Of a stretch of DNA of 64,000 nucleotides, positions 25,021 to 54,643 are shown piece by piece. The notes below the pieces were generated by a model. That model was not told where the DNA came from. It searched no databases and was given only the letters and a program-made list of their open reading frames with translations. The stretch comes from an uncultured Pseudomonadales bacterium. GTDB taxonomy: Bacteria > Pseudomonadota > Gammaproteobacteria > Pseudomonadales > Azotimanducaceae. The stretch is from positions 118,538-182,537 of the forward strand of contig CALKBV010000002.1 of NCBI GenBank assembly GCA_937775265.1. The letters run 5' to 3'. Every line of letters begins with the position of its first letter. Position 1 is the first letter of the stretch. A program made the translations under genes and the position numbers.

Positions 25021-28000
25021 CTAATTTATAGTTTCCAGACGCTTCCAAGACAACCGGCCCGTGCTGGCTCCAAACGACGTGTTCGTTCCAATAATGTGCA
25101 GCGCCCGGCCATACTGGGTCACACGCTTGTCACCGATGAAAGTCGAGTCGGTGGGTGGTGCAGGATCCTCAAGGATAATACCTGCAGCCGTCTGAGCGCC
25201 GCCTATATCGTCACCAGCGTCGAAGATACCGTCATTGTTCAGGTCAAACACCGTTCGATTAAAGCAGATTGAACCACCGGTAGCCGGGCAGAACGACAAG
25301 ACGGCACCACCCGCCAGCCCAACACAACTCCCAAGCTCCCTTGGGAAGACAGAGTTCACGAACGCAATGCCACCACGCAACTGTATGTTTCGTACGGCTT
25401 TCTCACCAGGGAACTCTGCGGGAGCGCCTGCCGCTGCGCCCGCCGCCGGAGAATCTAGGTCGTTATACCAACCTTTCTGGGCTCCGATCGCAGACACAGA
25501 ATAGTCAACATCATTATTTGTGAGCGTTCTTAACTTGCCCAAAGTATCATCAACATTGGTATAGCTTTGAACCTGGAGATCAGACTTCAGGATCAGCTCT
25601 GGTCCCAGTCGATCCCAGAGACCGTACACAGACTGGATTTCTGAATCGGTAGAGTCGACGGTACGCACATACGCACCTGTACCGAAGATGATAATAAAGC
25701 CTTCCTCTTCAGTTGGGTGAACGATGGCAATCGGTTGAGTAGTGATCGGCTGATTCTTCTCATCTACAGTGCCTGGCTTGTACTGCGCCTTAAATATCTT
25801 GGTAACACTCCAATCATTGAAATCAGAGGCCGTGATATCAAAGCGGAAAAAATTTCCCTGCAGATCCCCGGCATAAACATAGTCAGCGGTACCGTTACCA
25901 TCTGTATCGAGTACTCTTGGTTCACTAAGACCGTTGGGCAGCCCGGATTCCACACCGAATCCGGTATCCAGTTTAACGAAGTCCTGCTCGTCGCCGTCCT
26001 GACAATCAGCAGGAAAGCCTCCATCCGGGGTGACGTTATGGTTAATGTCAGGGTGACACCAGGTGCCATCTAACCCGCCTTCAAGGAACAGGATCAACAA
26101 CTTCGCAATACCCGCGGTAGAGTTATAGCCATTACCCGCGATTGAAACCCACTTGTGTTCACCGTCAGACTCAACAATGTTACTCATCACGATGGTTGGC
26201 ACACTAAACGTGTAACCAAGGTCTTTCACTGGCTGTGCGGGTGACAACAGGTCCTGGCGCTGGTCATCTTTACTACCGTCGTCATCCGTGTCAGCAAGCA
26301 AAGCGTCACCAAACTTGTCAGTCGGGTACGTATCATCTTCATCCGTGAACTCCCAGAGCACAACCTGCTCTGCTGAAGAATCCTTAAATGTGGCTGGATC
26401 TGTAACATCCAGCGCGAAGTAGGCTTTACCGCCACCTCCCTGGCCACTGATCAGGATAGTCCGCCACTCCTTATTACCATCACCATCAACGTCCATAAAG
26501 ACATCGTTGACGGCTGGGGTCGAATCCACAAAGTACTTGTGGGTGTATTCGAAATCCAGCAGATCTGTGACGTCCTGACTATAGCTATTTAGCATCAGAT
26601 TATTCGGCAGGTAGGCGATGACTTCATCGCCGGTTTCAGCGGCAAACCCATGCAACATACCATCGTTAGCGGCGACATAAACCACTGGACTGCGGGTATG
26701 ATTGTCGGAACGAAACTTTGAGTAAAGATCAGCAGCAGACTGAGGGAATGGCGGGGAATCTCTGCCTACCCTCGACGGAAGACCGATGAAGGTCGGCGCC
26801 GAATGCACAATATCACCCAGCCGACCCTCAATGCCGGGGCGCTCCCGGAGGTTGCCTGCAGGGCGCTCGTTAGAATGGTCACCTCGCAGGTAAGCGACTC
26901 CCTGGTTTACCTCTAGGTCTTGTTGGCTGCCAGCGGGCTCCGCGCTAAATGCTGCTCGTTGATCGGCATTAAGATCAGCCTGCCTGAACGGTACCCCGTC
27001 TTGCCCGTCGTAGGTCAGGATCACGCGATCGTCAGGATCTCTTACATCTAGTCGAGCCGCAGCATTCCAGACAGGATCCTCCGTCACCGTTCCATCCAGG
27101 TCAATTTCCTGCGCAAGCAGGTCACCCGTGTTGTTCTTCGTATTGTAGAAAGAACGGAACACAAGGGTGTCTTCAAGAATTTCCTGCGAGTTAAATGATA
27201 CGGCCGATGCAGCACCACTTCCCTGCTGGAACTCTTCGAAAGCCGCGATCAAAGCCTCTGCCAGAGTTGCAGCATTACCAGCACTGAGATACTGGCCCCG
27301 GCCATTAACCGCAGCATGACGCATGTCATCGATCTTACGCAAAGTATTGGTTGGATTGCCCCAATCAAAGGTTTGCGTGTAGTCCGTTGGCACGTCCTCC
27401 TCTGCGATAGCCCCGTTCACACCGAACCCAATAGTGAAAGTCTTCATGTGCTGGTGCATCAGGACATTCGAGTTATCCTCGAACGCATCAACTGCAGCGC
27501 CGGCGGTATCTCTCGAGGAAGTCGGTACTTCATTCGACAAGGAGCTGTGTAAATCAGACTCGTAGTACGCCATTGCAACGTCCGCCAGGGAGCTGGCGAA
27601 TGGGCCTTCATAGACACCACCATCAAAGTTCGTATCGCCATCACCATCCCTGTTGCCGACAGACGGGCTATTACCATTCCATGCGCCATCAGAAATCAAC
27701 AGCGTAAAGTTCTGCTGGCAGTTCCCCGCTGGCGCCTCAAAGATCGGGCAATTTGGATCACCCGGCGCAGAGTTGGAGCTGGAATTGAAGATGTCATTGC
27801 GCCTACAGGCAAAGTGTCGGCCTGCATCGCGAAGTGAACGTCTTAAAGGCGTAGCACCGCTGGACTGAGTTAGGTAGATCGCATCCAGCAGATCGGCCTT
27901 GGCACCCGTTCTTTCGGAAGTGTTCATGGACTTAATCGGCTGACCGTCACTACGACGGTTGAGTTTTGCATAGCCCACCCGAAGGTTCTCGGATGACGCA

Positions 28001-30276
28001 ACGACTTTACCGAGTGCAGACTTAGCGGTGAACTCACGGCTACGGGAATAAGTAAACCAGTTCGAAAAGTTCTGCAGCTCTTCATCGAAGGAACAGGAAT
28101 CCCCCGCGGCGACACAGTCAGTTCTGCTCTTTGGCCTGGGATAGGTATCTGACCCAGGCTCACCATTCGATTGTGTTTCTGACGCAGGTCGAATCTCTAC
28201 CAGTACGCCGTCAGAGTTAGTCGGGTCCAGTATCGGAGACGGCACCGCATCAAGGTCTGGTGTTGTTTCTGTCAAATCCTTGTTATCCCAAATATAGTAC
28301 CGCGGCAGGTACATATCTTCAGCAACCACCTGCCGAAAACCACTTGTGCCCCCAGTACACACCGTGCGAAAGTTTACGCACTTACCACGACGGAATCTGA
28401 AACACTGCCGAGAACAGGTTCGAGGACTTCTTATAACCGCCGCGCCTGTATAATCCGGTTGCAATATTCGGAGGTTGGTTGCAGCGCCTGAGGGTGAGAG
28501 CGGATTGTGCAGCGCTGCAGTCGGCGTTGAATTAGGAAAATCCACATCACTCGGGTTCAATCCGTTCCACGGGTCGTAGCGAATGGCCGGGTTATAGTAG
28601 TTCTTGTTGTAAAACGAATTCCTGAGACGCCACAAACCCTGACCAGGCGCATCACTTTCACCGGGCGCGACATAAAGGGAAGAACCTGCAGTCGCCTTCA
28701 TGGTGTAGAGGATGTAGTTGCCAGTCGAGAAATAGTACACGCCACTACTCTGATCCGTAAGAATATCCCAGCGCATTGAACCTGAATCGTCGTTGACGAT
28801 CAGCACATTCGCCTCTGGGCCCACGGGAAGTTCCAAGGGAATATCTGCTAGGCCAAAGTCCACCTCAACCACGTCGTCAGACAAGCCTGCGGGGGCATCT
28901 CCAATAGCTTCCACAACGATCGTCACCGGGACATCAAAAACACAAGTATCAGCCGCAGGCACAGGCGTCTCACATACATTGAAAACGAAACTGTCAGACC
29001 CAGAGAACGCAGCAAGCGGTCGATAAGTGAATGTACCGTCGGCATTAAATTCGTTTAGTAGTCCCTGCTCTGTGAGAAATCCATTAATCGAGAAGTGCAG
29101 GGTATCCACGTCTCGTCCCGCTGGCTGTTCACAGTCTGCGTCATTTGGATTACAGCCATTCCCATCAACGTGGGTGTTATCAACACCGGTTACCTTAGTA
29201 GCAAGGCCATCAGCCAGAGTAACAATCAGATCGCCAGCCTGCTCCATTTGGTAGACGATATTCGCAGGCACCCGAGGCAGGTCGTTAACTGGCGTCACGT
29301 TGACTGTCACTGTTGCACACCGGACATCATCCGGTGGTGTGAACGCCGGTTCCGATTCGGGGAACGCATCCTGCATGCAGTAGGTAAAGGTGTCTTCACC
29401 GTTGAAGTCAAGCGCGGGCTTGTACATGATCGAGTTATCCAGAATACCGGCAGCTGCGATAGTCGTATCGCCTGTCTGTGCGTCCTGGCATCCCGCATTC
29501 GCACAACTGACCTCACCATTTATCTCAATAGCGAAATCACCGACGTTATTTCTGTCGGCTAATCGCGATGTGGTTCGCCAGGTATGAGCCTGGCCGGAGC
29601 TATCCGTAATTGTCTGGCCCGCACTGATCACAAAAGAAGGGGTGTCACCCAGATAATCATTAGACAAAACATCGAAGACGATCGGCTCACCATCTTCTAC
29701 CATCACCAGTCCAATAAAATCATGGTAATGGTCATCCTTCGCCAGCGGGGTATCGTTGCCAATACTCTGAACCGTGATCCTGAAGGTTACTTCGTCAAAC
29801 AGGAAGATTGGATCGGCTCGGGCTGCCGGTGGTCGACCCTGATCAGTGGCGCGGACAGTTATGTCAAGGTAACCATGCCCATCCGGCGCCAACTGGATCA
29901 ACATCGACGTATCGGTGGTCTCGTAAACCGCGGTACGCGAAACATCGGTATCGACATCGCTAATAATAGTAAACGGCAGATCGACATACACTCTCTCAAC
30001 CGAAGCATCCGTTGGGACATCAACCACCGTTATCGTGTAAGTCAGTGAATCATCAATATCCGGATCGGTGAAAGCAGCTTCCAGCGGAAGCCGGATATCG
30101 GCCGAATCTTCATCCACCGCATAGCCAGAGGCGCTGTAGCTGCCTGGAATATAGGTAGGCGCGACATTATCTAGCGCTAAAGCGGAGTAACTAAACAGCT
30201 GGACCGCACAAAAAACAAAAAGCGGGAGTAATCGCGACCCCAACTTAAGTCGTCTGAATGTTGAATAGTTGCCCAT
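25021..30276 (-). CDS. pilY1: Type IV pilus tip adhesin PilY1, extended form (1751 aa)
   Basis: It has a signal peptide and about 450 aa of cadherin/Ig-like repeats (TVNVTPVNDLP). A vWA domain follows with the MIDAS DDSGSM (28774-28791). The C-terminal PilY1 propeller carries the Ca site DTDGNGTADYVYAGDLQGNFFRFD and a second DLNNDGIFDAGDD. Confidence 0.85.
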   Translation of the reverse strand: MGNYSTFRRLKLGSRLLPLFVFCAVQLFSYSALALDNVAPTYIPGSYSASGYAVDEDSADIRLPLEAAFTDPDIDDSLTYTITVVDVPTDASVERVYVDLPFTIISDVDTDVSRTAVYETTDTSMLIQLAPDGHGYLDITVRATDQGRPPAARADPIFLFDEVTFRITVQSIGNDTPLAKDDHYHDFIGLVMVEDGEPIVFDVLSNDYLGDTPSFVISAGQTITDSSGQAHTWRTTSRLADRNNVGDFAIEINGEVSCANAGCQDAQTGDTTIAAAGILDNSIMYKPALDFNGEDTFTYCMQDAFPESEPAFTPPDDVRCATVTVNVTPVNDLPRVPANIVYQMEQAGDLIVTLADGLATKVTGVDNTHVDGNGCNPNDADCEQPAGRDVDTLHFSINGFLTEQGLLNEFNADGTFTYRPLAAFSGSDSFVFNVCETPVPAADTCVFDVPVTIVVEAIGDAPAGLSDDVVEVDFGLADIPLELPVGPEANVLIVNDDSGSMRWDILTDQSSGVYYFSTGNYILYTMKATAGSSLYVAPGESDAPGQGLWRLRNSFYNKNYYNPAIRYDPWNGLNPSDVDFPNSTPTAALHNPLSPSGAATNLRILQPDYTGAAVIRSPRTCSRQCFRFRRGKCVNFRTVCTGGTSGFRQVVAEDMYLPRYYIWDNKDLTETTPDLDAVPSPILDPTNSDGVLVEIRPASETQSNGEPGSDTYPRPKSRTDCVAAGDSCSFDEELQNFSNWFTYSRSREFTAKSALGKVVASSENLRVGYAKLNRRSDGQPIKSMNTSERTGAKADLLDAIYLTQSSGATPLRRSLRDAGRHFACRRNDIFNSSSNSAPGDPNCPIFEAPAGNCQQNFTLLISDGAWNGNSPSVGNRDGDGDTNFDGGVYEGPFASSLADVAMAYYESDLHSSLSNEVPTSSRDTAGAAVDAFEDNSNVLMHQHMKTFTIGFGVNGAIAEEDVPTDYTQTFDWGNPTNTLRKIDDMRHAAVNGRGQYLSAGNAATLAEALIAAFEEFQQGSGAASAVSFNSQEILEDTLVFRSFYNTKNNTGDLLAQEIDLDGTVTEDPVWNAAARLDVRDPDDRVILTYDGQDGVPFRQADLNADQRAAFSAEPAGSQQDLEVNQGVAYLRGDHSNERPAGNLRERPGIEGRLGDIVHSAPTFIGLPSRVGRDSPPFPQSAADLYSKFRSDNHTRSPVVYVAANDGMLHGFAAETGDEVIAYLPNNLMLNSYSQDVTDLLDFEYTHKYFVDSTPAVNDVFMDVDGDGNKEWRTILISGQGGGGKAYFALDVTDPATFKDSSAEQVVLWEFTDEDDTYPTDKFGDALLADTDDDGSKDDQRQDLLSPAQPVKDLGYTFSVPTIVMSNIVESDGEHKWVSIAGNGYNSTAGIAKLLILFLEGGLDGTWCHPDINHNVTPDGGFPADCQDGDEQDFVKLDTGFGVESGLPNGLSEPRVLDTDGNGTADYVYAGDLQGNFFRFDITASDFNDWSVTKIFKAQYKPGTVDEKNQPITTQPIAIVHPTEEEGFIIIFGTGAYVRTVDSTDSEIQSVYGLWDRLGPELILKSDLQVQSYTNVDDTLGKLRTLTNNDVDYSVSAIGAQKGWYNDLDSPAAGAAAGAPAEFPGEKAVRNIQLRGGIAFVNSVFPRELGSCVGLAGGAVLSFCPATGGSICFNRTVFDLNNDGIFDAGDDIGGAQTAAGIILEDPAPPTDSTFIGDKRVTQYGRALHIIGTNTSFGASTGRLSWKRLETIN

Positions 30277-30429
30277 GTCTCTATTCCCGACTTATCAATT
30301 TCAAGTAACAACTCACCCTAACGAGTGAATGGCAAACAACAATATACAAGCAGGACGTCGCTAGTAATGGGTAAATTGACTCAATGGTCGAATTAGCTGA
30401 ACGAACGGCTCCACCATATTTTAAGAGCG

Positions 30430-31005
30430 CTAGAACCTTTTCCCGTAGGTTCCCTGGATCATGGCCAGGGCGGTTCCAGTAGCGCCGGTTCCACGGGCCG
30501 TGACTCGGAAGATCTCGGTTCGACCACCACCTGTGTCCTGGCCTATATTATCAAGATTCAGTGTGTCTGCATCCGAAATAACTGTTTTTACATGCTCGAC
30601 GATGTATCTTGGCTGAACGTTGACACCGGTCATCGTGGTGTCACTCACTCGAGAGCCGGTGACGCCGGCCCAGACCCCAACCCCCGTCCAGTTTGGAGCT
30701 ACACCAGGTGCTGCCTCATAGTAATAACCATTAGCCTCATTGGCACCTAGCGTCCCAGGGGCGCCTGAATCTCCAAAGGCAATCAGCGAGTTAAGACCTT
30801 GCAGAAGGTTTTCTCCATCCCTGAGCGCTAACTCAGCGGCCTGGAAAGCGAGATTTCCATCATTGGCGTTGCGGGCCATTCGTTGCTGCAGCGAAGTTGT
30901 CTGAATAGATGAGACACCGAGGACCGTCAATAGCAACAGCATGACAAGGCTCATAAACAATACGATACCTTCCTGCTTTTGTTTGTTTTGCATCGCCATC
31001 CTCAT
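30430..31005 (-). CDS. pilX: Type IV minor pilin PilX
   Basis: It has a PilX N-terminal domain (QEGIVLFMSLVMLLLLTVLGVSSIQTTSLQQRMARN) and the expected operon position. Confidence 0.75.
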   Translation of the reverse strand: MRMAMQNKQKQEGIVLFMSLVMLLLLTVLGVSSIQTTSLQQRMARNANDGNLAFQAAELALRDGENLLQGLNSLIAFGDSGAPGTLGANEANGYYYEAAPGVAPNWTGVGVWAGVTGSRVSDTTMTGVNVQPRYIVEHVKTVISDADTLNLDNIGQDTGGGRTEIFRVTARGTGATGTALAMIQGTYGKRF

Positions 31006-31010
31006 TAGCC

Positions 31011-32195
31011 TCAGTTTCTCAGCATAAAAGTCTGTGTGAAAGCTCGGCGTATCAAGCCATCTCTGCCGTTTGCATCATTAGGATTATCGTTATATCCGGC
31101 TAAAGCCCCCCCCACCAGCGTGTAAGCGCAGTTTTGAATGCCGCAACCATGGGTTGTCGCACTAGAACCGCCAACATCATCAATAGTGTTAGCGATCACC
31201 GTGACCCGAACAGTGACGACATTATTCATGACAACCTGATTTGCGGGCAGGTATTGGTTTGGGGTGCCGTTTCCGTCGGTAGATACACCATAAAGAATCT
31301 GGAGGTTTTCAATACCCTCAACAAGCTCAACCGGAGCTGTTGTTCCGGATTTTTTCCACAGTGACAGAGGAACATCACCGCTTCTATTTTCGCCTGTGCC
31401 AGGCGCGATGAAGTAAATGTGCGTCTCAATTGCGCTTACATTTGCGTCATCCTCAAAAGTGTTTCTTTGAGCCAGAGTCAGGAAGCTATTCCGCCAGGCA
31501 TCAGTTGGATCCAGCGAATGTGCAATATCGACTTGCTCCGTAAGCGGATCAGGTGTAGCTACAAGCGTCACACCGGTCGCGTGGAATATGGTCGCTTTCT
31601 CGCAATCATGAATCATTGCAAGATCCCCTTGACTGAACCCGAGTGCAGCCAGCCCCCTGTTTTGGTCTACCAAGACAGAGATATCCCCTCTTGAAGTCAA
31701 CATATTCTGCGCAAGCCGGATTTCACTGTCTTGCTGTAAAGTGTTTCTTATCACCAATACATCCGTGCCACTCACAATGTTGTTCGTATTGATGCCAGTG
31801 CCGGCAACAAAAACATTAGTATTAGTCGCCCCTATTGTCGTTGGCAGACCAGTCAGGTTTGGAGCCCAGAGTCCTACGCCAGAAGCGTCATGACCCCCGA
31901 GACCAGACCTTAGATCAAACTCATACGGTATGTTGTTACCGTTAGCTGCTGTAAAGAAGACCGGGGTGGGTGCGTTCGAGAAACATCCGAGATACCCTGC
32001 CTTATAGATATCACGACCAATGAAATCGAGCGCAAATCGGGCAGATTCCTGTATCCGGGACTGACCCATCATGACCCGATGAGTGTCAGAGTTGGCACTG
32101 AACAACTGCACAATACCCGCGGTAATAACTGACCCGACGGTCAACGAGATCATCAGCTCAACCAGGGACAAACCCCTTTGCAGTGAATGGTGCAT
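31011..32195 (-). CDS. pilW: Type IV minor pilin PilW
   Basis: It has a prepilin N-terminus (RGLSLVELMISLTVGSVI), is 394 aa long, and sits between pilV and pilX. Confidence 0.75.
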   Translation of the reverse strand: MHHSLQRGLSLVELMISLTVGSVITAGIVQLFSANSDTHRVMMGQSRIQESARFALDFIGRDIYKAGYLGCFSNAPTPVFFTAANGNNIPYEFDLRSGLGGHDASGVGLWAPNLTGLPTTIGATNTNVFVAGTGINTNNIVSGTDVLVIRNTLQQDSEIRLAQNMLTSRGDISVLVDQNRGLAALGFSQGDLAMIHDCEKATIFHATGVTLVATPDPLTEQVDIAHSLDPTDAWRNSFLTLAQRNTFEDDANVSAIETHIYFIAPGTGENRSGDVPLSLWKKSGTTAPVELVEGIENLQILYGVSTDGNGTPNQYLPANQVVMNNVVTVRVTVIANTIDDVGGSSATTHGCGIQNCAYTLVGGALAGYNDNPNDANGRDGLIRRAFTQTFMLRN

Positions 32196-32743
32196 CAGTT
32201 TGTTGTCCTAGTCCGGAGCGTTACTGAGGTGTAGGTCCGCTGACTCGGATCGTCAATCCACCGCACAATCACACAGGTTTCCCCCGGTTGAACCGCGCAA
32301 AGCGCAGAGGCAGCATTATTTACTATGGCGCCCTGCCCTCCAGGCAAGGTGCCGGTAACACCCAGGGCGATGCAAGCGGGGTAGCGATTGAGGGCGGCAT
32401 TTAGATCGTTAATCGAGCATCTCCACAACGCAATGTCGTAGCCGCTCATCTGGGCGGCGTTACAGCCCCTGGCTACACAGTCTCTCGGCAACGCCGGGGC
32501 AGCGTTAAATCCCAGGCCGGCATAATTCTGGAGGGGATTTGCCCGCATTCGGTCGAGTATGTCACCACCAAGCATGAGTGCTTCCGCACGCAATAATGAG
32601 CTCCGGTTCTGTTGCAGGCTTAACACCTGCAGTCCCGCAACGCCAAGAATGCCCACTGACATGATGACCACTGAAACAAGCACCTCGATCAAGGAGAAGC
32701 CTTGTTGTCGTTGTCGGGTGAGTAAACGCGTTTTCATGGGCAA
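32195..32743 (-). CDS. pilV: Type IV pilus modification protein PilV
   Basis: QGFSLIEVLVSVVIMSVGILGVAGLQ is a typical PilV N-terminus. Confidence 0.8.
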   Translation of the reverse strand: MPMKTRLLTRQRQQGFSLIEVLVSVVIMSVGILGVAGLQVLSLQQNRSSLLRAEALMLGGDILDRMRANPLQNYAGLGFNAAPALPRDCVARGCNAAQMSGYDIALWRCSINDLNAALNRYPACIALGVTGTLPGGQGAIVNNAASALCAVQPGETCVIVRWIDDPSQRTYTSVTLRTRTTN

Positions 32744-33291
32744 AACGGCCGCACAGACAGGACTGGATCACCGGGCTCTGCTTCTCTCCAGACCTTTGGC
32801 CGACCGATGATCGCTATCTGAATCCGGCGACCGAGCTGTCCCGAAAGGCATAAATCCAGGTTTCGAAGCTGGTTGTTTGTTCCACTCAGCGCACCCAAGC
32901 TGCTGAACTGAATCGAGGTGCGGGGAGCATTCCAGTTACCTCCGTTTGCGGCATCATCTCTACCTGCAAGCGTTGCTGTTCCCAACAATGCTGGAAAACG
33001 CCTGATAACGGGATTACCGCAGTTTCCCGGAGTGCCACGGACGATGCAGTATCCTCCACCGAACTCATTGCCGGGGGTACCAACCGCGGCCTGCAGGCTG
33101 GTAGTGTTCCCGATTCTGCTTGCTTCTGATCGGGCCAGGTTTATCGCCAACGATAAATCATTTGTCTGAGTCACGAGCCGGTTTCTTTGCAGCATTCCCT
33201 GAAAGCTGGGCACAGCAATGGACATGCCGATACCCATAATCACGATAACGAACAACATCTCTACCATAGTGAAGCCGTCGAAACGCCTCAT
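32734..33291 (-). CDS. fimU: GspH/FimT-family minor pilin (FimU position)
   Basis: It has a prepilin N-terminus (DGFTMVEMLFVIVIMGIGMSIAVPSF). It is the first gene of the fimU-pilVWXY1 block. Confidence 0.7.
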   Translation of the reverse strand: MRRFDGFTMVEMLFVIVIMGIGMSIAVPSFQGMLQRNRLVTQTNDLSLAINLARSEASRIGNTTSLQAAVGTPGNEFGGGYCIVRGTPGNCGNPVIRRFPALLGTATLAGRDDAANGGNWNAPRTSIQFSSLGALSGTNNQLRNLDLCLSGQLGRRIQIAIIGRPKVWREAEPGDPVLSVRPFCP

Positions 33292-42517: not shown

Positions 42518-42642
42518 AATCTTCAGCTAAGGTGATTTTGGTGATGTCTACACCGCGCCTGAGTTACAGTGCCTCGAGCACCGCTGGCACTAAACCAAAA
42601 ACACGCGTATCTTCTAGGTATCGACAATCAGGGGAAAACGAC

Positions 42643-44847
42643 ATGCACCAAGCACCCACTGTACTGCTTGTTCTAGCCACACTATTCATCGCCGCTTGCT
42701 CAGAAGCGCCAGAAGCGCCGGAGCTCGCAGAGACGGCCAAAGAAGCCCAGGCGATATCTGCTATCGGGCAGATTGATGATGCTCGCATCAACAATGCTGA
42801 CTCCGAACCAGGAAATTGGTTGGCTCATGGGCGCACCTATGAAGAACAACGCTTTTCTCCCCTTAAGCAGATCAACAAAGAAACCGTAAAAGACCTTGGC
42901 CTGGCCTGGTACAAGGATATGGACACAAACCGAGCACTCGAATCAACGCCGATCGTGGTCGACGGCATTATGTTTTTCACCAGCACCTGGAGCCGGGTGT
43001 ATGCCATCGACGCCGTCACGGGGGAAGAAAAGTGGTCCTACGATCCCCAAGTGCCTCGCGAGTGGGGTCGTCGTGGATGCTGTGATGTCGTCAATCGCGG
43101 CGTTGCTGTGTACAAAGGAAAGGTCTACTTCGGCAGTTTCGACGGGCGTCTAATTTCGCTGGACGCAACCACCGGTGAAAAAGTCTGGGAAGTGGACACT
43201 ATTACCGACCGGGACCGTTATTATACCGTCACCGGGGCCCCGCGCGTAGCCAACGGCAAAGTATTTATTGGTAACGGCGGCGCTGAATTTGGCGTTCGGG
43301 GGTATGTCACCGCCTATGATGCAAACACCGGTGAGGAAGTGTGGCGCTTTTTTACTGTCCCGGGGGATCCGTCTAAACCCTTTGAAGGCGAGGCGCAGAA
43401 ACTCGCAGCGGCAACCTGGAAAGGTACAAATTACTGGGAATACGGTGGCGGTGGTACCGTTTGGAACTCGATTGTTTACGATCCAGACCTGAACTCACTA
43501 TATCTTGGCGTCGGAAACGGCTCGCCCTGGACTCGAGAGATCCGCTCGCCTGGGGGCGGTGATAATTTGTTTCTTTCGTCGGTTGTTGCGCTTGATGCTG
43601 ATACCGGGGACTACAAATGGCATTACCAAACCACACCGGGCGACAACTGGGATTACACGGCTGTTCAAGATATCGCCCTAGCCGATATGGAGATAGATGG
43701 GGTCGAGCGAAAAGTCTTGCTGCAGGCGCCCAAGAATGGTTTCTTCTATGTGCTTGACCGCAACGATGGCACCCTGCTTAAAGCGAACCCCTTTGCCGCA
43801 GTGACGTGGGCGTCGCATATAGATATGGACACCGGGCGACCTGTGGAAGTTGAGGCTAATGCCTACGATAAGGAAGCGCAGTGGGTGCTGCCTGGTCCGT
43901 TGGGTGCGCACAATTGGCAAGCCATGTCGATCGACGTGAAAGCCGGTATTGCCTATTTGCCGGTTCAGGAAAACGCCCTCATCTACGCCATGTCGGATGA
44001 ATACCATAAAACGGGGCTCTACAAACGGCACCCTGGCCGCTTTAACCTTGGTCTTGAATTTGGGCGCATTGCCCAACTCTTTGTGGACAACATTGGTGAG
44101 CAACCAAAGGTCCGGGGATATCTTAAAGCGTTTAATTTTTTGACCGGTGAAGAAAAATGGGCTGTTGAATTCCCCCATTACTGGAATGGTGGGGTACTCG
44201 CGACAGAAGGGGAATTAGTCTTTCAGGGTAACGTGCTTGGCATGTTCGCGGCCTATGATACAGAAACGGGGGAAGTGCTCTGGGACTTCAATACTTACGT
44301 TTCCATGCTCGCGCCGCCCATCACTTACCAAATTGATGGCATACAGTACGTGTCTATCCTGACTGGTACGGGCGGCGGGGATCTGTTTTCAGGCGCGCCC
44401 ATTGACCCAGCGGCAAACCCAGCGTCGCTTACCTACAGCAATACCGGCCGATTACTGGTGTTCAAACTGGGCGGTTCTGAAAGTCTGCCATCCCCCACCT
44501 TGCGTGATATGACCATTCCTGAGCAACAATTAGCAGCTGTCAGTGATGAAGATTTGGCAAAAGGTGAAGTGCTTTATCATGACTTTTGTGCGCCCTGCCA
44601 TGGGTTGATCGTGCGCTCGGGTGGGGTTATCGCCGATCTGCGAATGATGGGCGCAGAGTCACATACCAATTTTGATGCCATTGTGCTTGGGGGGCTGCTG
44701 TCTGGTGCTGGTATGGCGTCTTTTGCAGATTCCTTAACATCTGATGATACGGCGCTGATTCACGACTATGTAAAAGCAAGGGCTCACGAAGACCGTGGTT
44801 TAGCGATGGGTGAACCCGACGCCGGCCGGTTGACGTGGCTTAAGTAA
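42643..44847 (+). CDS. PQQ-dependent quinohemoprotein alcohol dehydrogenase (type II, C-terminal cytochrome c domain)
   Basis: It has an 8-bladed PQQ propeller with the vicinal Cys pair (GCCDVVNRG) and W-docking repeats. The C-terminal domain has the heme site CAPCHG. The start is set at MHQAPTVLLVLATLFIAAC (signal/lipobox). Confidence 0.88.
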   Translation: MHQAPTVLLVLATLFIAACSEAPEAPELAETAKEAQAISAIGQIDDARINNADSEPGNWLAHGRTYEEQRFSPLKQINKETVKDLGLAWYKDMDTNRALESTPIVVDGIMFFTSTWSRVYAIDAVTGEEKWSYDPQVPREWGRRGCCDVVNRGVAVYKGKVYFGSFDGRLISLDATTGEKVWEVDTITDRDRYYTVTGAPRVANGKVFIGNGGAEFGVRGYVTAYDANTGEEVWRFFTVPGDPSKPFEGEAQKLAAATWKGTNYWEYGGGGTVWNSIVYDPDLNSLYLGVGNGSPWTREIRSPGGGDNLFLSSVVALDADTGDYKWHYQTTPGDNWDYTAVQDIALADMEIDGVERKVLLQAPKNGFFYVLDRNDGTLLKANPFAAVTWASHIDMDTGRPVEVEANAYDKEAQWVLPGPLGAHNWQAMSIDVKAGIAYLPVQENALIYAMSDEYHKTGLYKRHPGRFNLGLEFGRIAQLFVDNIGEQPKVRGYLKAFNFLTGEEKWAVEFPHYWNGGVLATEGELVFQGNVLGMFAAYDTETGEVLWDFNTYVSMLAPPITYQIDGIQYVSILTGTGGGDLFSGAPIDPAANPASLTYSNTGRLLVFKLGGSESLPSPTLRDMTIPEQQLAAVSDEDLAKGEVLYHDFCAPCHGLIVRSGGVIADLRMMGAESHTNFDAIVLGGLLSGAGMASFADSLTSDDTALIHDYVKARAHEDRGLAMGEPDAGRLTWLK

Positions 44848-44853
44848 GCAGGG

Positions 44854-45414
44854 CTAGCCCGGTACAGGCTTAGCCGGCAGGTGACGGGGTGGTGCGCGGT
44901 TGAAGCGAATATTCACTTCCTCGTCTGAAGCGCCAGTGACTGAGTTCTCACCGGCGTATCCCGAAACCGCATCACCCTCTTCACTGGGGGTCATTAGATT
45001 TCGCGACAGCGTCCCGTTAAGCTCTTGCCCTTCCTCGATTGCAGAGGCTGCCGCTTCTGCCGTTTCCGCCGCTGCCTCAGACCACTCGACCCGATGCGCG
45101 CGCGGCGGCCCAATCGGCAGATCTGCCTCGTCGAGCGCTCGCACCCAGTAGTATATGTAGCCTGGGTTTCTGTCCTCTTTCTTTCGTTCCTCAATAGAAA
45201 CCCACAATAGACGGAATTGCTCAGGCAGCGGCTGCGTTGATGCCCAACCGGACATCGCCTGAAAGCCAAACCAGGTAACCATATAAAAGCAAGTCGTGAC
45301 AACAATTGCTGCGACCTTCACTCGGGGCGCATGACTGGTTTTCAGGTTAAAGTTCAATAACAGCGCGGCCACAGCGACATAGGCAACAGACAACATCACC
45401 ACAGCGTTGACCAT
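44854..45414 (-). CDS. Membrane protein, third gene of the MotA/ExbB-like operon (function unknown)
   Basis: The 186-aa ORF has two N-terminal TM helices, an acidic Ala-rich segment and a Pro-rich tail. Its ATG shares one nt with the TGA of the upstream gene. Confidence 0.6.
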   Translation of the reverse strand: MVNAVVMLSVAYVAVAALLLNFNLKTSHAPRVKVAAIVVTTCFYMVTWFGFQAMSGWASTQPLPEQFRLLWVSIEERKKEDRNPGYIYYWVRALDEADLPIGPPRAHRVEWSEAAAETAEAAASAIEEGQELNGTLSRNLMTPSEEGDAVSGYAGENSVTGASDEEVNIRFNRAPPRHLPAKPVPG

Positions 45415-46034
45415 CAGGATTTATCCAGAACCAAGGTCAGAAGTCGCTTCTGGAGTTCATTCGTACCTACAACTTCACCGGCACTATCGAGCCGAAATCG
45501 CACTGCGGTTTGCTCATCCCCTGTCCCCTTGAGAAGTCGTGTACCGTAGTAAACCAATGATACTTCAGGGTTCAGTTTTTCGACTTTAACGGTGACGGGC
45601 AAGCTTTCATCATAGTTAGATTGGTAGTGCAGCAGGTTCACCACATACTCTCCACTCTGCAGCGCCCGCACCGTAACAGTTTCCTGGTTAATCGGGTTCA
45701 ATACCTCTTTCCCGTCGAGGGTGACGCGATCGGCTACTAGCCCGCGATCGTCCCTGTCCAGGTGCATCAGTTCACCATCACGATTGTGGTACCAGACAAC
45801 TTCACCATGCGGGCCTTCCACTAACGCGTCAACGTCGTCCGGATGACCATCAGCCCAGCGCACGGTAATGAGCATCTCCGCCTTCGAATCGATCTTGCCC
45901 GCATCTTCAGGATCATTGATCAGCATAAACGCTATGATGAACATCATGGCGAATCCAAGCAGCGCATTAAACAGAAGGTCAGTGAAGGCGTCACTTGATG
46001 TGCTGCCACTTAAAGCTCTATGTCTCATCGACAC
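45414..46034 (-). CDS. Single-pass membrane protein with a MotB/ExbD/TolR-like TM Asp and an unknown periplasmic domain
   Basis: AFTDLLFNALLGFAMMFIIAFML places an Asp at the cytoplasmic end of the TM helix, as in MotB, ExbD and TolR. The roughly 160-aa beta-rich C-terminal domain has no OmpA-like motif that I can see. It overlaps the upstream gene by 17 nt. Confidence 0.55.
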   Translation of the reverse strand: MSMRHRALSGSTSSDAFTDLLFNALLGFAMMFIIAFMLINDPEDAGKIDSKAEMLITVRWADGHPDDVDALVEGPHGEVVWYHNRDGELMHLDRDDRGLVADRVTLDGKEVLNPINQETVTVRALQSGEYVVNLLHYQSNYDESLPVTVKVEKLNPEVSLVYYGTRLLKGTGDEQTAVRFRLDSAGEVVGTNELQKRLLTLVLDKS

Positions 46035-46674
46035 CTAATCCAACACGGGTCTCAACATGAGTCGACACGCGATTAGCAAGATCGACGGCTGCTGAATCCA
46101 GCACATGATATTGGAATCGAAGTAATGTGCTGGAGACAAGACCGGCGAGCGTGGTGTAAAGGGCGACAGCCATGCCACCACTCATGCTGGCCAGCAGGCG
46201 CTGCATCACCGCTCCGTCAAAATCCTTGATGTCCGCCACCGGCAGGAGCATGAAGATGAAACCGATAATCGTTCCAAGCAGACCCAATCTGAGCAGCACA
46301 TCGGTGGCAAAATGCCCAAAGGCGTGTCTGTTCATGAGCTGGTCATAATACAGGCTGAGGAGCCGTTCTCTGCGAGCCCCACCAAGACTAGATTCCAATC
46401 TGTCAATCAAATCCGACGTAAGACTGGCGGTGCCGGACGAAACCGAACCGCCATCCAGCGTTGCGGCATCATTAATGTCCCGAGAGAGTAACCAACCCAC
46501 CCAAACCCAATGCATGGTTAATGCTATATACATCGCAAGAATTACAGATGAAAGGTAACTTCGATCGGCGCTGACAAAAAGGTCAACAAAACCATATTGA
46601 AAGGCCAGGAAAACACCGAAAGAGATTACGCCCAACAAAACCAGCATGCGCAGAAGCAATAAATGTCGATACAC
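46018..46674 (-). CDS. MotA/TolQ/ExbB-family proton channel protein
   Basis: The 218-aa ORF has 4 TM segments. The C-terminal TM pair (LGLLGTIIGFIFML ... MSGGMAVALYTTLAGLVSSTLL) matches the family signature. Confidence 0.7.
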   Translation of the reverse strand: MYRHLLLLRMLVLLGVISFGVFLAFQYGFVDLFVSADRSYLSSVILAMYIALTMHWVWVGWLLSRDINDAATLDGGSVSSGTASLTSDLIDRLESSLGGARRERLLSLYYDQLMNRHAFGHFATDVLLRLGLLGTIIGFIFMLLPVADIKDFDGAVMQRLLASMSGGMAVALYTTLAGLVSSTLLRFQYHVLDSAAVDLANRVSTHVETRVGLGVDET

Positions 46675-46808
46675 AGGGAATCACAGCTATTGGAATACCC
46701 GTAAGCATAACAGAACTTCTATGAGTCAATAATGAGGGGTTGACGATACCTGTGGATACTGACAAATAGACTCGTCAGAATTGACGGAATTGACCGATCA
46801 AAACATAC

Positions 46809-46950
46809 AAACGCCATCGATTTCCTCTGGATTTCATTGCTTACGCTGCCTGGCTCTACTATCGATTCAATCTCAGTCACCGTGATATTGAAGATCTTCT
46901 AGCCGAGCAAGGTATGACTGCCAGTCACGAATCAATTCGGCGCTATAGGC
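46809..46950 (+). mobile_element. IS6-family transposase N-terminal remnant
   Basis: The translation KRHRFPLDFIAYAAWLYYRFNLSHRDIEDLLAEQGMTASHESIRRY matches the HTH region of IS6/IS26-type transposases (AVWLYYRF.LS.RD.E.LLAERG..VS.ESI.RW). There is no start codon, DDE domain or terminal IRs. Confidence 0.6.
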
Positions 46951-46988
46951 ATCAGAAGATTGAAACGAAAACACCGAGTTTGTTTTCG

Positions 46989-48278
46989 CTACTTGCTTCC
47001 CACGCGGGCTAGATCATCGGCAAGGTAATACCCCGCTCGCCAGTAGTGGAACGCCGCCCACAGGTTCACAAACCCCCAGGCAAAAAGGCTATAGCGCAGA
47101 GCATCACTATTAAAAGTGCCAACAAGCATGTCAGAAAGAAATCCAACAGCCGGTGGGCCAAATACAAAACCGATAAAGTTCAGAACAAACAACAACACTG
47201 CGGCGGCGACAGCTCGCATGCGCACCGGGGCAAGCCCCTGGACTTGAGCGAACGTCGTGCCCTGGTAGAAGTTGCCAAGCATAATAGGAAAGCTGAGCAA
47301 CAACAGCGAAAGCCACCAGACATCAACCATGAATGCTGCAGCACTAAAGGGAACGGCCACGAGTAAGGCAAGAGTCACAACCCATAAATACCAACGCGTA
47401 TCTTTGGCACCAAAGCGGTCTGAAAGCCATCCGCCAGCAACAATACCGATCCCACCGGGAATTCCAAGTACCAACCCGAGCCAGAAACCTGCTTCGGTGA
47501 GGCTCATATCGTAGCTGCGAACGAAAAAAGTGGGCGCCCAGGTAACAAGACCGTAGCCAACGAAAGCAGTTAAACCTCCGCCCGTTGCCAAGTGTAAAAA
47601 CGAACGACGGGTAGCCAGGTACCGGGCCACTTCCAAAATAGTAGGGTTTTTCTCCGCTGAGTTAGTCTGCACGCCATCGGCATGCCCACGAGGTGGTTCC
47701 TTTACCGTCAGGAACACCACAAATGAGAGCAACAGACCCGGTATACCGACGACAAAAAATGCTATACGCCAGCCAAATGCATCGGCAATGGCACCACCGG
47801 CAAACATACCAAACATGATGCCTATCGGAATGCCCAGGGCATAGATACTCAGCGCTGTCGCTCGCTCTTTAGCTGGATAAAGGTCCGCCAGCATCGAGTG
47901 CGCAGATGGACTACATCCGGCTTCACCTATACCCACACCAATGCGCGCGACTGCCAGCTGCCAGAAGTTCATCGCAAAACCTGACAAAGCCGTCATGCCA
48001 CTCCAAACGGCCAACGACAGACCGATAAGGTTGCGCCTGTTCCAGCGGTCTGCGACAAGTGCCAGGGGCATTCCTAACGTCGCATAGAAAATGGCGAAGG
48101 CAGTCCCGGACAATAGTCCCATACCGAAATCGGATATGCCTAGATCTGTTTTTATCGGCTCGATAAGGATCGAGAGTATTTGTCGATCGATAAAGTTAAA
48201 GGTGTAAACGACGACTAAAACGCCAAGCGTGTAGCGCTTTACATTTTCACTAATGAGGGGCTGCGATACTTCAGACAA
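46989..48278 (-). CDS. MFS transporter (Spinster-like)
   Basis: The 429-aa ORF has 12 TM segments and the N-terminal motif VYTFNFIDRQILSIL. It is a paralogue of the partial gene at the window end. Confidence 0.8.
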   Translation of the reverse strand: MSEVSQPLISENVKRYTLGVLVVVYTFNFIDRQILSILIEPIKTDLGISDFGMGLLSGTAFAIFYATLGMPLALVADRWNRRNLIGLSLAVWSGMTALSGFAMNFWQLAVARIGVGIGEAGCSPSAHSMLADLYPAKERATALSIYALGIPIGIMFGMFAGGAIADAFGWRIAFFVVGIPGLLLSFVVFLTVKEPPRGHADGVQTNSAEKNPTILEVARYLATRRSFLHLATGGGLTAFVGYGLVTWAPTFFVRSYDMSLTEAGFWLGLVLGIPGGIGIVAGGWLSDRFGAKDTRWYLWVVTLALLVAVPFSAAAFMVDVWWLSLLLLSFPIMLGNFYQGTTFAQVQGLAPVRMRAVAAAVLLFVLNFIGFVFGPPAVGFLSDMLVGTFNSDALRYSLFAWGFVNLWAAFHYWRAGYYLADDLARVGSK

Positions 48279-51975: not shown

Positions 51976-52336
51976 CAGAACAATTCCTCTCATCGAGAGG
52001 AGGTACTATCGCAGAAAGATATTGAGATGACGAGGCTGTCATCCCGCCTGGATGTCTCGCAAAAAACCTTGCTGGTACGGGGATTAACTTATGGTTACTC
52101 AGCAATCGTATATTTATTCGCGCGGTCAATTTCGAACATAACAGCCTTTATCTCAAATTTCCGCTCGTTGTTACCATATTGGTAATTAATACCCACCATT
52201 TTAGTAGTTAATATCCACAAAACCCTTAGCACTGCAGCAATCGCGTCTACATTCATCAAATTAAGTACCATATTGGTGGATTTGTCAGGCCGATAAAGAT
52301 ACATTGCGCGACACCGCAAAGGGGGAGAAAAACATT

Positions 52337-54643
52337 ATGTTTAAAAATATCCATCAAAATTTTAACGCTGCATTATTTGCAACGGCTATAGCGACTTTCG
52401 CTTTAAGTTCATTTTCAAATGAAGCAGCAGCACAGACTGCTGAGAGAAATAGTCTTGCTCTCGAAGAGATTGTTGTCACGGCCAGAAAGAAATCTGAGTC
52501 GATTCAAGATGTTCCAGTAGCTGTTACAGCTATCACAGATCAACTGCGAGAAGGCAGCGTGCGTCGTTTAGAGGACATACAGGCGTTTGCGCCTAACCTG
52601 TTCATTAATCGGACACCGGGTATTGCCAGTGGTGCCGCGATTACGATCCGGGGTGTCGCATCGCTTGAAAGTGACAAGAGCTTTGAGCCCTCTATCGGGG
52701 TGGTGATGGATGGCATGTTCCTGGGAACATCGAGCGGCGTGCTTCTTGATAATTTCGATATCGAGCGCATCGAAGTACTGCGTGGCCCACAGGGAACACT
52801 GTTCGGTAAAAACACGACCGGAGGGATCCTTAATGTCATCCGCACGCCTGTTTCCTTGAATGAAAGGGGTGTCGATCTAAAACTCACAGCTGGCGAGTAC
52901 GGTCGGCAAGATGTGAGTGCCGTTGTTCAACTTCCGATTATCCAAGATACGCTCGGACTTAAATTATTTGCCGCCAAAGTGGAGCATGACGGACACGTCC
53001 GTAACACGACTCGGAACGAAGATGTTGGTGGCGACGATAAAACAAACTACGGCTTCACTGCACTTTGGGCGCCGACGGATAATTTCGATCTGAAAGTGCA
53101 CTATGAAGTCATGGAAGATACGAGCGTGCAGGGCGCGTACGTTAATAGGAACCAAGTGGGCGAGTTAGCCTGTACGCTTACGCAGATTGGCTTTGATCCT
53201 GCAAACGGCTGTGAAAAAGACGCCAACGATGGTCCGGATAAGACTGAGTCTGACGGCGAAAACTTTAGTGACAATGATTACGAGTCAACGATCATCACAG
53301 CGAATTACGACACGGACGCCTTCCTGTATACCTACATCTATTCGAACCGCGACATGGATGAGCAAAACATGCAGGACTTCGACGGTGCGCCGGTCCACCT
53401 TTTGAGGATGAACTTCTTTAATGATTGGGAGCAAACGAGTCACGAATTCAGAGTGACCTCACAATTTTCAGACAAGGTTCAAGTTATCGCCGGCGTTTAT
53501 GATTGGGAAGCTGACTTTGAGCAACGCTGGGATGTTTATGACTTGTTTTACCAGCTATCGCGCCTGGGCGTTCCGCCTTGGGGCGCTGGTAGACAGGGCG
53601 TTGAAGGATACGTCGATGTCTTCCCTTGGGAAGATGATGTTGCTGGTAATAATGGCCAGGCTCAGGTGACTGAATCCTTAGCCGTGTTCGCGTCAGCAGA
53701 CTGGTACTTGAATGAGCAATGGATGCTGACATTGGGTTTCCGTTGGACGGAAGAAGAAAAGGACTTTGTGGGCGGTGCATCTGCGCCTGGCTATTACCCA
53801 GACAGAGGTGAACCATGGCCTGGGGTTTTTAATCCTTACCCTGCGAAGGCCAAATGGACAGAAACAACACCTAAGGTCGGTGTAAGGTACCAGCCTTCAG
53901 ACGACGTCATGTACTACGCGTCATACAGCGAAGGGTTCAAGAGTGGTGGTTTCTTTGCCCGTCAGGCTAATTATAATATCGATCCTTCCTACGAACCTGA
54001 GTATGTTAAAAATTACGAGTTTGGGTGGAAGACAACATTGTTAGACGGAAGAATGATCTTCAACGGTGCAATTTTCAGATCAGAATATGATGACAAGCAA
54101 GAATCTATTTTGATCCCTGTCGATCTTTCAAACGTGGCGACCGTTGTTCGAAATGCTTCTTCGCTTGAAATGACTGGATTGGAATTAGAGGTAATGTACC
54201 AACTGACCGAGGCGTGGGACGTTTTGGCGACCTACGGTTACCTGAATTCGGAATACGATGATTACTTCGCGGACCTCTCTGGCGACGGAATCATTACTGA
54301 CAACTCTGACTTAGTGCCGCGTAATACGCCTGAAAATACCTTTGGCTTAACGACGTCGTACACCGCGAAAGTGGGCAGCGGCGACCTGAAAGCACGAATA
54401 TCTTACCGCTTTAGGGATTCCATGGAGAGTGAGTCTCAAAACAATCCATTAGGTAGCCTCGACAGCATTCATAATGTCAACGCGAACATAAGCTATACGA
54501 TTAACAATTATGGTATATCCGTGTGGGGCAGGAACATCACTGATGAGAGAGAGCAAAGATGGTCAACCATTGGCGGCCTTACTTCTCGCGGCTGGTGGAA
54601 TGAGCCTGCTACTTACGGGGTAACGTTGTCAGCCTCTTTTTAA
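52337..54643 (+). CDS. TonB-dependent receptor
   Basis: It has a signal peptide, a TonB box/plug (EEIVVTARKKSESIQDVPVAVTAI), a beta-barrel and a terminal aromatic residue (...LSASF). An SD GGGGGAG sits upstream of ATG 52337. Confidence 0.9.
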   Translation: MFKNIHQNFNAALFATAIATFALSSFSNEAAAQTAERNSLALEEIVVTARKKSESIQDVPVAVTAITDQLREGSVRRLEDIQAFAPNLFINRTPGIASGAAITIRGVASLESDKSFEPSIGVVMDGMFLGTSSGVLLDNFDIERIEVLRGPQGTLFGKNTTGGILNVIRTPVSLNERGVDLKLTAGEYGRQDVSAVVQLPIIQDTLGLKLFAAKVEHDGHVRNTTRNEDVGGDDKTNYGFTALWAPTDNFDLKVHYEVMEDTSVQGAYVNRNQVGELACTLTQIGFDPANGCEKDANDGPDKTESDGENFSDNDYESTIITANYDTDAFLYTYIYSNRDMDEQNMQDFDGAPVHLLRMNFFNDWEQTSHEFRVTSQFSDKVQVIAGVYDWEADFEQRWDVYDLFYQLSRLGVPPWGAGRQGVEGYVDVFPWEDDVAGNNGQAQVTESLAVFASADWYLNEQWMLTLGFRWTEEEKDFVGGASAPGYYPDRGEPWPGVFNPYPAKAKWTETTPKVGVRYQPSDDVMYYASYSEGFKSGGFFARQANYNIDPSYEPEYVKNYEFGWKTTLLDGRMIFNGAIFRSEYDDKQESILIPVDLSNVATVVRNASSLEMTGLELEVMYQLTEAWDVLATYGYLNSEYDDYFADLSGDGIITDNSDLVPRNTPENTFGLTTSYTAKVGSGDLKARISYRFRDSMESESQNNPLGSLDSIHNVNANISYTINNYGISVWGRNITDEREQRWSTIGGLTSRGWWNEPATYGVTLSASF

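Follow-up and report, generated by a model that had tools for sequence, protein, structure and literature searches.

To our knowledge, each of the 5:2 ion-driven motors recognized so far drives a distinct process of the cell envelope, namely flagella, the Ton and Tol systems, gliding and type IX secretion (T9SS), and Zorya. In a recent study, TolQ-like pentamers were predicted from synteny and modelling to work with 'transpore-helix' von Willebrand factor A (vWA) proteins, in which the Asp-bearing helix partner is not ExbD, TolR or MotB (Mol Biol Evol 2025, PMC12204202). Here, we analysed a 64,000-nucleotide (nt) stretch of DNA (the window) from an uncultured Pseudomonadales bacterium (Azotimanducaceae; contig CALKBV010000002.1) that contains three overlapping genes, referred to as A, B and C and together as the trio, and we compared this locus with the known motors. 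The three genes are as follows.

46018-46674, minus strand: gene A, 218 amino acids (aa); MotA/TolQ/ExbB family, presumed pentameric proton-channel subunit
45414-46034, minus strand: gene B, 206 aa from GTG; presumed dimeric 'axle' or transpore-helix subunit
44854-45414, minus strand: gene C, 186 aa; presumed third subunit or output arm

Our preferred reading, to which we assign a probability of roughly 55%, is that A, B and C form one inner-membrane motor of the MotAB/ExbBD/TolQR 5:2 kind and that, in the cellular clade, this motor is dedicated to a periplasmic pyrroloquinoline quinone (PQQ)-dependent alcohol dehydrogenase. A stator-type motor was also the original prediction for this locus, and such a motor with an unusual output is still the best reading, because the trio turned out neither to be an ordinary Ton/Tol set nor to lack conservation in relatives. 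B and C match no library family or solved structure, and the trio looks like an undescribed relative of the Mot/Ton/Tol motors and a widespread envelope machine. No published description of it was found in the literature on phage-encoded MotA/ExbB proteins, on DUF3422 or on lanthanides/XoxF in combination with MotA/ExbB.

The three-gene unit and its proteins

The junction sequences confirmed that the three open reading frames (ORFs) are coupled by overlaps of 17 nt (with the GTG start of B) and 1 nt, as originally proposed. The A/B junction reads ...GGTGTCGATGAGACATAG, and the B/C junction is TGATG. An alternative ATG start for B is present at 46028, two codons after the GTG, which would reduce the A/B overlap to 11 nt and the product to 204 aa; this ATG is the likelier start, because the homologues of B measure 204-205 aa.

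The order A-B-C is kept in approximately 150 loci overall, and such a recurrence is therefore not due to chance. A search with B gave 80 genome loci, and in 74 of these the genes stand in this order and overlap or abut; a contig end truncates five of the remaining six, and one (L076) is without C. In the 80 metagenome loci obtained with a Devosia-like B, A-B-C is also present wherever the flank leaves room, and the same arrangement is present in Azospirillum brasilense Sp7. The conservation of the three-gene unit in relatives, for which the original prediction had asked, is thus established for the genome and metagenome loci alike. The genome loci were derived from marine Pseudomonadales-type metagenome-assembled genomes, SAR86 (including the isolate HIMB1674), K189A, Azotimanducaceae, Myxococcota and Vicinamibacterales, and their products are 64-83% (B), 40-61% (A) and 32-63% (C) identical to the window proteins. 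Marine and soil B sequences group together as a single clade in a neighbour-joining tree. Two contigs labelled Limisphaerales (L002) and Candidatus Fonsibacter (L009) encode B proteins that are 96% and 78% identical to that of the window and have the same neighbours; mis-binning of gammaproteobacterial contigs is the probable cause. In SAR86 loci, an enoyl-CoA hydratase gene next to a major facilitator superfamily (MFS) gene had appeared as a 'second A-like gene' through an artefact of clustering.

Protein A is a member of the MotA/TolQ/ExbB channel family, as had been recognized from its sequence. It matches the Pfam family MotA_ExbB (PF01618) with 31.4 bits (cut-off 22.9) at residues 130-201, which correspond to the C-terminal transmembrane (TM) pair, and the A proteins of phages and Azospirillum likewise exceed the threshold of this family. 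When a profile built from 23 A homologues was compared with solved structures, MotA was matched with an E-value (E) of 8e-6, followed by TolQ (5e-3) and ExbB (0.07). Residues invariant in these 23 diverse homologues are D36 in the first periplasmic loop, G133, T134 and G137 in TM3, and T174 and G177 in TM4, and the motifs GxxGT (TM3) and TxxG (TM4) align with the channel motifs of TolQ and MotA. Hydropathy and the positive-inside rule predict four TM helices with a MotA-like topology. The protein terminates approximately 30 aa past TM4, and its cytoplasmic loop comprises approximately 60 aa in bacteria and is nearly absent in the phage copies. Because A is almost devoid of a cytoplasmic domain, the work of the machine would have to be done in the periplasm. 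One 411-aa database protein (P0252) contains an A-like domain (126-241) fused to a B-like domain (273-408); this fusion could be real or a gene-calling artefact.

Pfam, NCBIfam, PADLOC and PHROGs contain no family to which protein B belongs, and its own family is large (3688 clusters at 90% identity and 1660 clusters at 50% identity). It is predicted to consist of a cytoplasmic N-terminus, one TM helix, a linker of approximately 12 aa and a periplasmic all-beta sandwich, and the AlphaFold2 (AF2) model, with a predicted local distance difference test score (pLDDT) of 91, places the helix at residues 12-37 and the sandwich at residues 53-191. The helix carries the sequence AFTDLLFNALL, the Asp of which (D18) is located near the cytoplasmic end. 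The suggestion that this Asp occupies the protonatable position is supported by its conservation: it is at least 90% conserved in an alignment of 76 sequences, invariant in 67 distant members and found in every full-length B sequence recovered from the loci. In the periplasmic part, W59, D66, D68, D94, G97, E117 and G127 are also invariant and form an acidic cluster, DDVD...LDRDDxG.

The original prediction that the periplasmic domain of B is neither an ExbD fold nor an OmpA-type anchor agrees with the searches. No match to PF02472 (ExbD/TolR) was obtained even at E <=1, and the modelled fold is all-beta, not alpha/beta; the OmpA-like peptidoglycan-binding domain (PF00691) gave no Pfam or NCBIfam match and no fold match. 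A Foldseek search of the B model against the PDB yielded no fold match below E 0.01 and no ExbD or TolR among the matches, and a PDB profile search with B yielded marginal matches only, such as the C-terminal jelly roll of a subtilisin (0.16), again without ExbD/TolR. Among predicted viral structures, the best match of the B model was an uncharacterised 713-aa Cellulophaga phage protein (E 4e-5, TM-score 0.50), and a resemblance to a BACON-domain protein (E 4e-4) was also detected. As judged from sequence and model, B is therefore a protein with a MotB/ExbD/TolR-type helix and without an ExbD or OmpA fold, and its periplasmic part, as modelled, is a new beta-sandwich with an acidic cluster resembling a Ca site. 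The library matches of B and C to Cupredoxin_1 (E 0.11), SitI3 (0.09) and phrog_1735 (0.003) were regarded as noise, and a cupredoxin identity for B was dropped because there are no conserved Cu ligands.

Protein C is likewise absent from Pfam, NCBIfam, PADLOC and PHROGs and has no PDB sequence match at E <=10. The two TM helices, acidic Ala-rich stretch and Pro-rich end that had been noticed in the sequence were seen again in the alignment and in the AF2 model (pLDDT 70), the acidic stretch as a helix. According to this model, two N-terminal TM helices joined by a basic loop are followed by an oligonucleotide/oligosaccharide-binding (OB)-like barrel with a helix, a linker and a C-terminal motif; the basic hairpin loop predicts that everything beyond the hairpin is periplasmic. 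The linker is acidic and disordered, approximately 35 aa in length (residues 138-165 are disordered in the model), and is not a long Pro-rich rod. The protein ends with the conserved motif F-x-F...PPxLPxK. C evolves faster, with 44 word-based matches; P103 is invariant, and G55, W56, R104, P179 and K181 are at least 90% conserved. The C proteins of bacterial and phage trios are homologous, having in common the hairpin, GW, P-R-A, the helix, the disordered linker and PPxLPxK. A Foldseek search of the C model against the PDB found nothing below E 0.01, the best fold matches being of the OB type (PltB and SSB, E ~0.1). The S-H-L-S motif is absent from C: the conserved residues of TM1 are A15, L17-19 and N22, with no His, and there are two TM helices, not one.

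These features bear directly on the possibility that the trio is an ordinary Ton/Tol paralogue (ExbB-ExbD-TonB or TolQ-TolR-TolA) that has diverged past easy recognition. The gene order recalls exbB-exbD-tonB, and A aligns end to end with TolQ (E 5e-3). However, the topology of A is MotA-like with an additional helix at the N-terminus, PF02472 gave no signal with B, whose confident model is all-beta and without a PDB match, and C has no Pfam match to TonB_C or TolA and no such fold among its structure matches, its own fold being OB-like. C is thus not a TonB or TolA variant, which favours the original prediction, and the reading as a diverged ordinary Ton/Tol set is already contradicted and highly improbable.

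Linkage to PQQ dehydrogenases

In the original prediction, the operon was described as an orphan that is wedged 6 bp from a convergent alcohol dehydrogenase gene. This gene is the following.

42643-44847 (ORF 42532-44847), plus strand: PQQ-dependent quinohemoprotein alcohol dehydrogenase, convergent with C

The distance was correct, as 6 nt separate the convergent stops of the dehydrogenase (44845-44847) and C (44854-44856). However, the dehydrogenase is not an incidental neighbour but the most conserved one, and one is also kept nearby in soil lineages, so that the designation as an orphan does not hold. The ORF comprises 771 aa, with a probable start at ATG 42643 that gives a product of 734 aa; given this start, the protein has a lipoprotein-type signal, LFIAAC/S. 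It matches NCBIfam TIGR03075 (methanol/ethanol family) with 615 bits (cut-off 480) together with a PedF-like cytochrome c550, and the Pfam matches are PQQ (260 bits) and Cytochrome_CBB3. It contains an eight-bladed PQQ propeller with the Ca-type signature GDNWDYT and a C-terminal CxxCH cytochrome c domain. This immediate neighbour of the trio is the sole PQQ dehydrogenase of the window.

In the marine clade, a PQQ dehydrogenase gene follows C directly in convergent orientation in 60 of the 74 assessable loci, with a median gap of 39 nt, and seven further loci contain one within 6 kb. The outer flanks of the block consisting of the trio and the dehydrogenase differ between the marine lineages. 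Ca-type quinohemoprotein enzymes with GDNWDYT account for 50 of the 62 marine enzymes scanned, and most of the others fit no scanned pattern. The N-termini of the marine enzymes contain either a lipobox (LVSC/S in SAR86, LFIAAC/S in the window) or a hydrophobic anchor that is not cleaved and precedes a linker rich in Pro, Ala and Glu; from these sequences, the marine-clade dehydrogenase seems to be membrane-tethered. Ordinary signal peptides are present in the enzymes of the soil clade.

A PQQ dehydrogenase gene is also present within 6 kb in most of those sister soil clade loci that have sufficient flank, and four arrangements were observed.

Arrangement 1: dehydrogenase located upstream and on the opposite strand, separated from the trio by genes for a DUF3422 protein, a cytochrome c and a LysR regulator
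Arrangement 2: two tandem dehydrogenase copies upstream
Arrangement 3: dehydrogenase on the same strand as the trio, 0.35-0.8 kb behind C, as part of a classic cluster that also encodes cytochrome c, a pentapeptide-repeat protein and a beta-propeller
Arrangement 4: dehydrogenase co-directional, 2.4 kb upstream of A

All 28 soil enzymes scanned (28/28) have the lanthanide-type DYD signature without a fused cytochrome. No conserved small ORF is present between C and the co-directional dehydrogenase in the soil loci. Tandem PQQ dehydrogenase pairs lie beside the trio in L016 (7194-11655), L048 (7189-11630) and L137-L139. In the Devosia-like lineage (L081-L083, L101-L118, L126 and L137-L139), a 415-aa DUF3422 membrane protein gene divergently adjoins the trio and is located between it and the lanthanide-type dehydrogenase gene; the protein belongs to no NCBIfam family, and no literature description of it was found.

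As a control, no PQQ dehydrogenase was present in the 226 kb that flank phage and other trios. It is gene neighbourhood only that shows the link between the trio and the PQQ dehydrogenase. Because marine and soil B proteins belong to a single clade, the linkage may have arisen once; it has nevertheless survived gene rearrangements and a switch in enzyme subfamily, and it extends over several phyla. Periplasmic delivery of cofactors and metals to PQQ dehydrogenases is only partly understood. In M. alcaliphilum 20ZR, MEALZ_3990 and MEALZ_3991, which are annotated as MotA/TolQ/ExbB and may or may not be homologous to the trio, are reported to fall together with mxaFI, of the Ca-dependent PQQ methanol dehydrogenase cluster, when La replaces Ca (PMC6277846).

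The other features of the window that are relevant here, or were considered, are as follows.

46794-46988, plus strand: N-terminal fragment of an IS6-family transposase, between the MFS gene and A, approximately 120 nt from the start of A
46989-48278: MFS transporter gene, upstream of A
52304-54643, plus strand: TonB-dependent receptor-like ORF, 779 aa, 5.6 kb from gene A
25021-33291, minus strand: cluster for the tip and minor pilins of a type IV pilus (PilY1-like ORF of 1751 aa, then four prepilin-type ORFs), unrelated to the trio

The IS6 remnant reported upstream of A is thus present, at a distance of approximately 120 nt. Its identity is indicated by tblastn matches that fall under features annotated as 'IS6 family transposase' in the plasmids searched, and its best match (79%) is located on a plasmid of Halioglobus pacificus, a hint that the host may resemble Halieaceae. 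A scan of the 42-49 kb part of the window against Rfam gave no match, and a promoter/terminator scan gave results no better than those for shuffles. In accordance with the original prediction, no tonB, tolA, tolB, pal, flagellar or gliding genes were found within approximately 12 kb of the trio.

The TonB-dependent receptor-like ORF requires consideration of another explanation, in which the trio is a TonB-like energiser and A5B2-C powers an outer-membrane receptor of the TonB-dependent type that imports PQQ or a lanthanide/calcium chelate for the dehydrogenase. Import of PQQ and lanthanides via TonB-dependent receptors is established biology, the layout of the trio parallels that of ExbB-ExbD-TonB (a channel, an Asp-bearing partner and an anchored protein with a flexible periplasmic arm), and receptors of the same sequence cluster as 52304-54643 are encoded two genes upstream of A in approximately nine related loci (e.g. 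L030, L036 and L056). However, marine bacteria of this sort have many TonB-dependent receptors, and for this reason the proximity may be due to chance. Furthermore, the conserved block contains no receptor gene, the phage versions have no receptor nearby, and C has two TM helices, not one, and is without a TonB C-terminal domain. We therefore regard a TonB-like energiser as quite improbable.

Phage-borne relatives

Most of the deep branches of the B family are from phage genomes, and in the tree of B the cellular clade is nested among them. The contigs of the deep branches carry genes for terminase, SbcCD-like nucleases, radical S-adenosylmethionine (SAM) proteins, methyltransferases and gp55-like sigma factors, and the B family also has members in IMG/VR contigs of 158-235 kb. 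A scan of the IMG/VR viral contigs with the window B did not recover any window-type B. Family members are also present in isolated phages, namely Rhizobium phage RHph_N3_19 and phage 16-3 (p040), in addition to the following two trios.

Rhizobium phage RHph_I1_18: EVB91_122 passes MotA_ExbB, EVB91_123 is B and EVB91_124 is C-like
Rhizobium phage P10VF: genes 191-193 (P10VF_191-193; locus L183, 123684-125188), beside a late sigma factor gene and gp46/47 homologues

In T4-like phages (L183, and also L087 and L097), the trio is located in the replication/late-transcription region, beside the genes for a gp55-like sigma factor and the gp46/gp47 nuclease, and this position points to a conserved accessory slot. 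Some phage trios adjoin lipopolysaccharide (LPS)-type genes (Glyco_transf_9 and an epimerase).

This distribution raises the possibility that the trio is a domesticated phage module, for example for superinfection exclusion, envelope remodelling or Zorya-type anti-phage defence, and that its place beside the dehydrogenase is a historical accident. The nesting of the cellular B clade among branches that are mostly from phages (T4-like Rhizobium phages, 16-3, marine terminase-bearing contigs and the 158-235 kb contigs) is consistent with this explanation, as are the LPS-type neighbours of phage trios, the IS6 remnant upstream of A and the match of the A TM region (residues 106-190 only) to the PADLOC ZorA models (E 1e-6). 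However, no ZorA tail, ZorB peptidoglycan domain, nuclease or other effector is present, and B and C have no PADLOC match. The PQQ linkage has outlasted changes of gene order (at least five arrangements) and of enzyme subfamily (two) and spans several phyla; housekeeping genes flank the trio, including in the 1.6-Mb genome of a SAR86 isolate; B is 64-83% identical over the marine clade; and the window type of B was not encountered among the IMG/VR viral contigs. A phage module placed by accident therefore appears unlikely.

A proposed motor and its relation to known systems

In the preferred reading, that of a proton-driven motor serving the dehydrogenase, A would form a pentameric channel ring, in which the conserved threonines of TM3 and TM4 would line the proton path. 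Two copies of B would insert their single helices into this ring, and proton binding and release at the Asp of B would drive rotation of A around B. These steps follow by homology from the solved motors, and the role of C is suggested by strict synteny and shared conservation. The sandwich of B, which would be situated directly above the membrane, may be an anchor (e.g. to glycan/peptidoglycan) or a working head, and C may be a hairpin-anchored third subunit whose flexible tail, ending in PPxLPxK, acts as a TonB/TolA-like arm that reaches a partner. Candidate forms of help to the dehydrogenase are the supply or insertion of PQQ, the supply or insertion of Ca or a lanthanide, and the positioning of the membrane-tethered enzyme. 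In the phage branches, the same engine would perform another envelope task.

Several points weigh against this reading. The trio is without a nearby PQQ dehydrogenase in seven marine loci (mainly Ca. Azophilus), in five long soil loci and in Azospirillum, and the dehydrogenase gene of the window and the marine clade is convergent and not co-transcribed. If the marine and soil clades share one ancestral linkage, some of the association would be inherited and not gained independently. The phage copies have no PQQ dehydrogenase beside them, and therefore the engine does not need that enzyme. Phage and bacterial C proteins share one tail motif, and the target of the tail is therefore probably not the dehydrogenase itself. 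In addition, the stoichiometry, the rotation and the membership of C are proposed from homology and synteny, and binding of metal or glycan by B is a guess from the residue pattern and a weak fold resemblance.

A broader and more tentative view is that the trio represents a fourth kind of Ton/Tol-like periplasmic force-transducing machine, common to T4-like phages and bacteria, which in bacteria would be a proton-driven accessory of the Ca- and lanthanide-type PQQ alcohol/methanol dehydrogenases. Such a machine would consist of a ring like that of MotA, an axle made of the Asp helix and the beta-sandwich, and an arm that is anchored by the hairpin and carries a docking peptide. The family is large, with thousands of sequences in the abundant ocean bacteria SAR86 and K189A, soil Alphaproteobacteria, Myxococcota, Acidobacteriota and T4-like phages, and two of its three proteins are unannotated. 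A proton-powered helper, if true, would be new biology for alcohol/methanol oxidation and lanthanide use, and the phage copies raise the question of why a virus would bring its own proton-driven envelope motor. The isolated Rhizobium phages and the cultured carriers open the system to experiment.

Among the known systems, ExbB-ExbD-TonB and TolQ-TolR-TolA resemble the trio in that a compact gene unit encodes three inner-membrane proteins: a channel whose TM threonines are conserved, a partner that crosses the membrane once and has a protonatable Asp near the cytoplasmic end of its helix, and an anchored third protein whose periplasmic region is long and flexible. Unlike those systems, the trio has an all-beta sandwich in B, four predicted helices in A, and a C protein with two TM helices, an OB-like domain and a PPxLPxK peptide in place of the C-terminal domain of TonB/TolA; its conserved neighbour is a PQQ dehydrogenase, with no receptor, TolB or Pal partner. 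The flagellar stators MotA-MotB and PomA-PomB are related to it in that MotA is the best solved-structure match of A (E 8e-6) and has a four-TM topology like that predicted for A, and in that the Asp of B stands in an F-x-D-L-L context as in MotB. However, the cytoplasmic loop of A, which is short or, in phages, nearly absent, leaves no torque-generating interface, B is without an OmpA-like domain, flagellar genes are absent, and non-motile SAR86 as well as phages carry the trio.

The Zorya pair ZorA-ZorB is similar in the match of the A TM region to ZorA profiles and in the phage-related context of a MotAB-like pair. It differs in that the trio has no ZorA coiled-coil tail, no ZorB peptidoglycan-binding domain and no ZorC, ZorD or ZorE, that its neighbours in the window are genes for an alcohol dehydrogenase and an MFS transporter, and that phages themselves carry it. 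GldL-GldM and PorL-PorM are also motors of the 5:2 type, in which an Asp/Glu-bearing partner with an all-beta periplasmic region delivers periplasmic work. GldM and PorM are long multi-domain dimers that span the periplasm, whereas the periplasmic part of B is a single small domain borne by a short linker, with no sequence or fold match to them and no T9SS genes nearby. The closest published idea is that of the TolQ/vWA systems (PMC12204202), in which a MotA/TolQ channel is likewise combined with a non-standard Asp-helix partner that has a different periplasmic head; the trio is distinguished from these by its beta-sandwich head, its conserved C protein and its association with PQQ dehydrogenases and T4-like phages.

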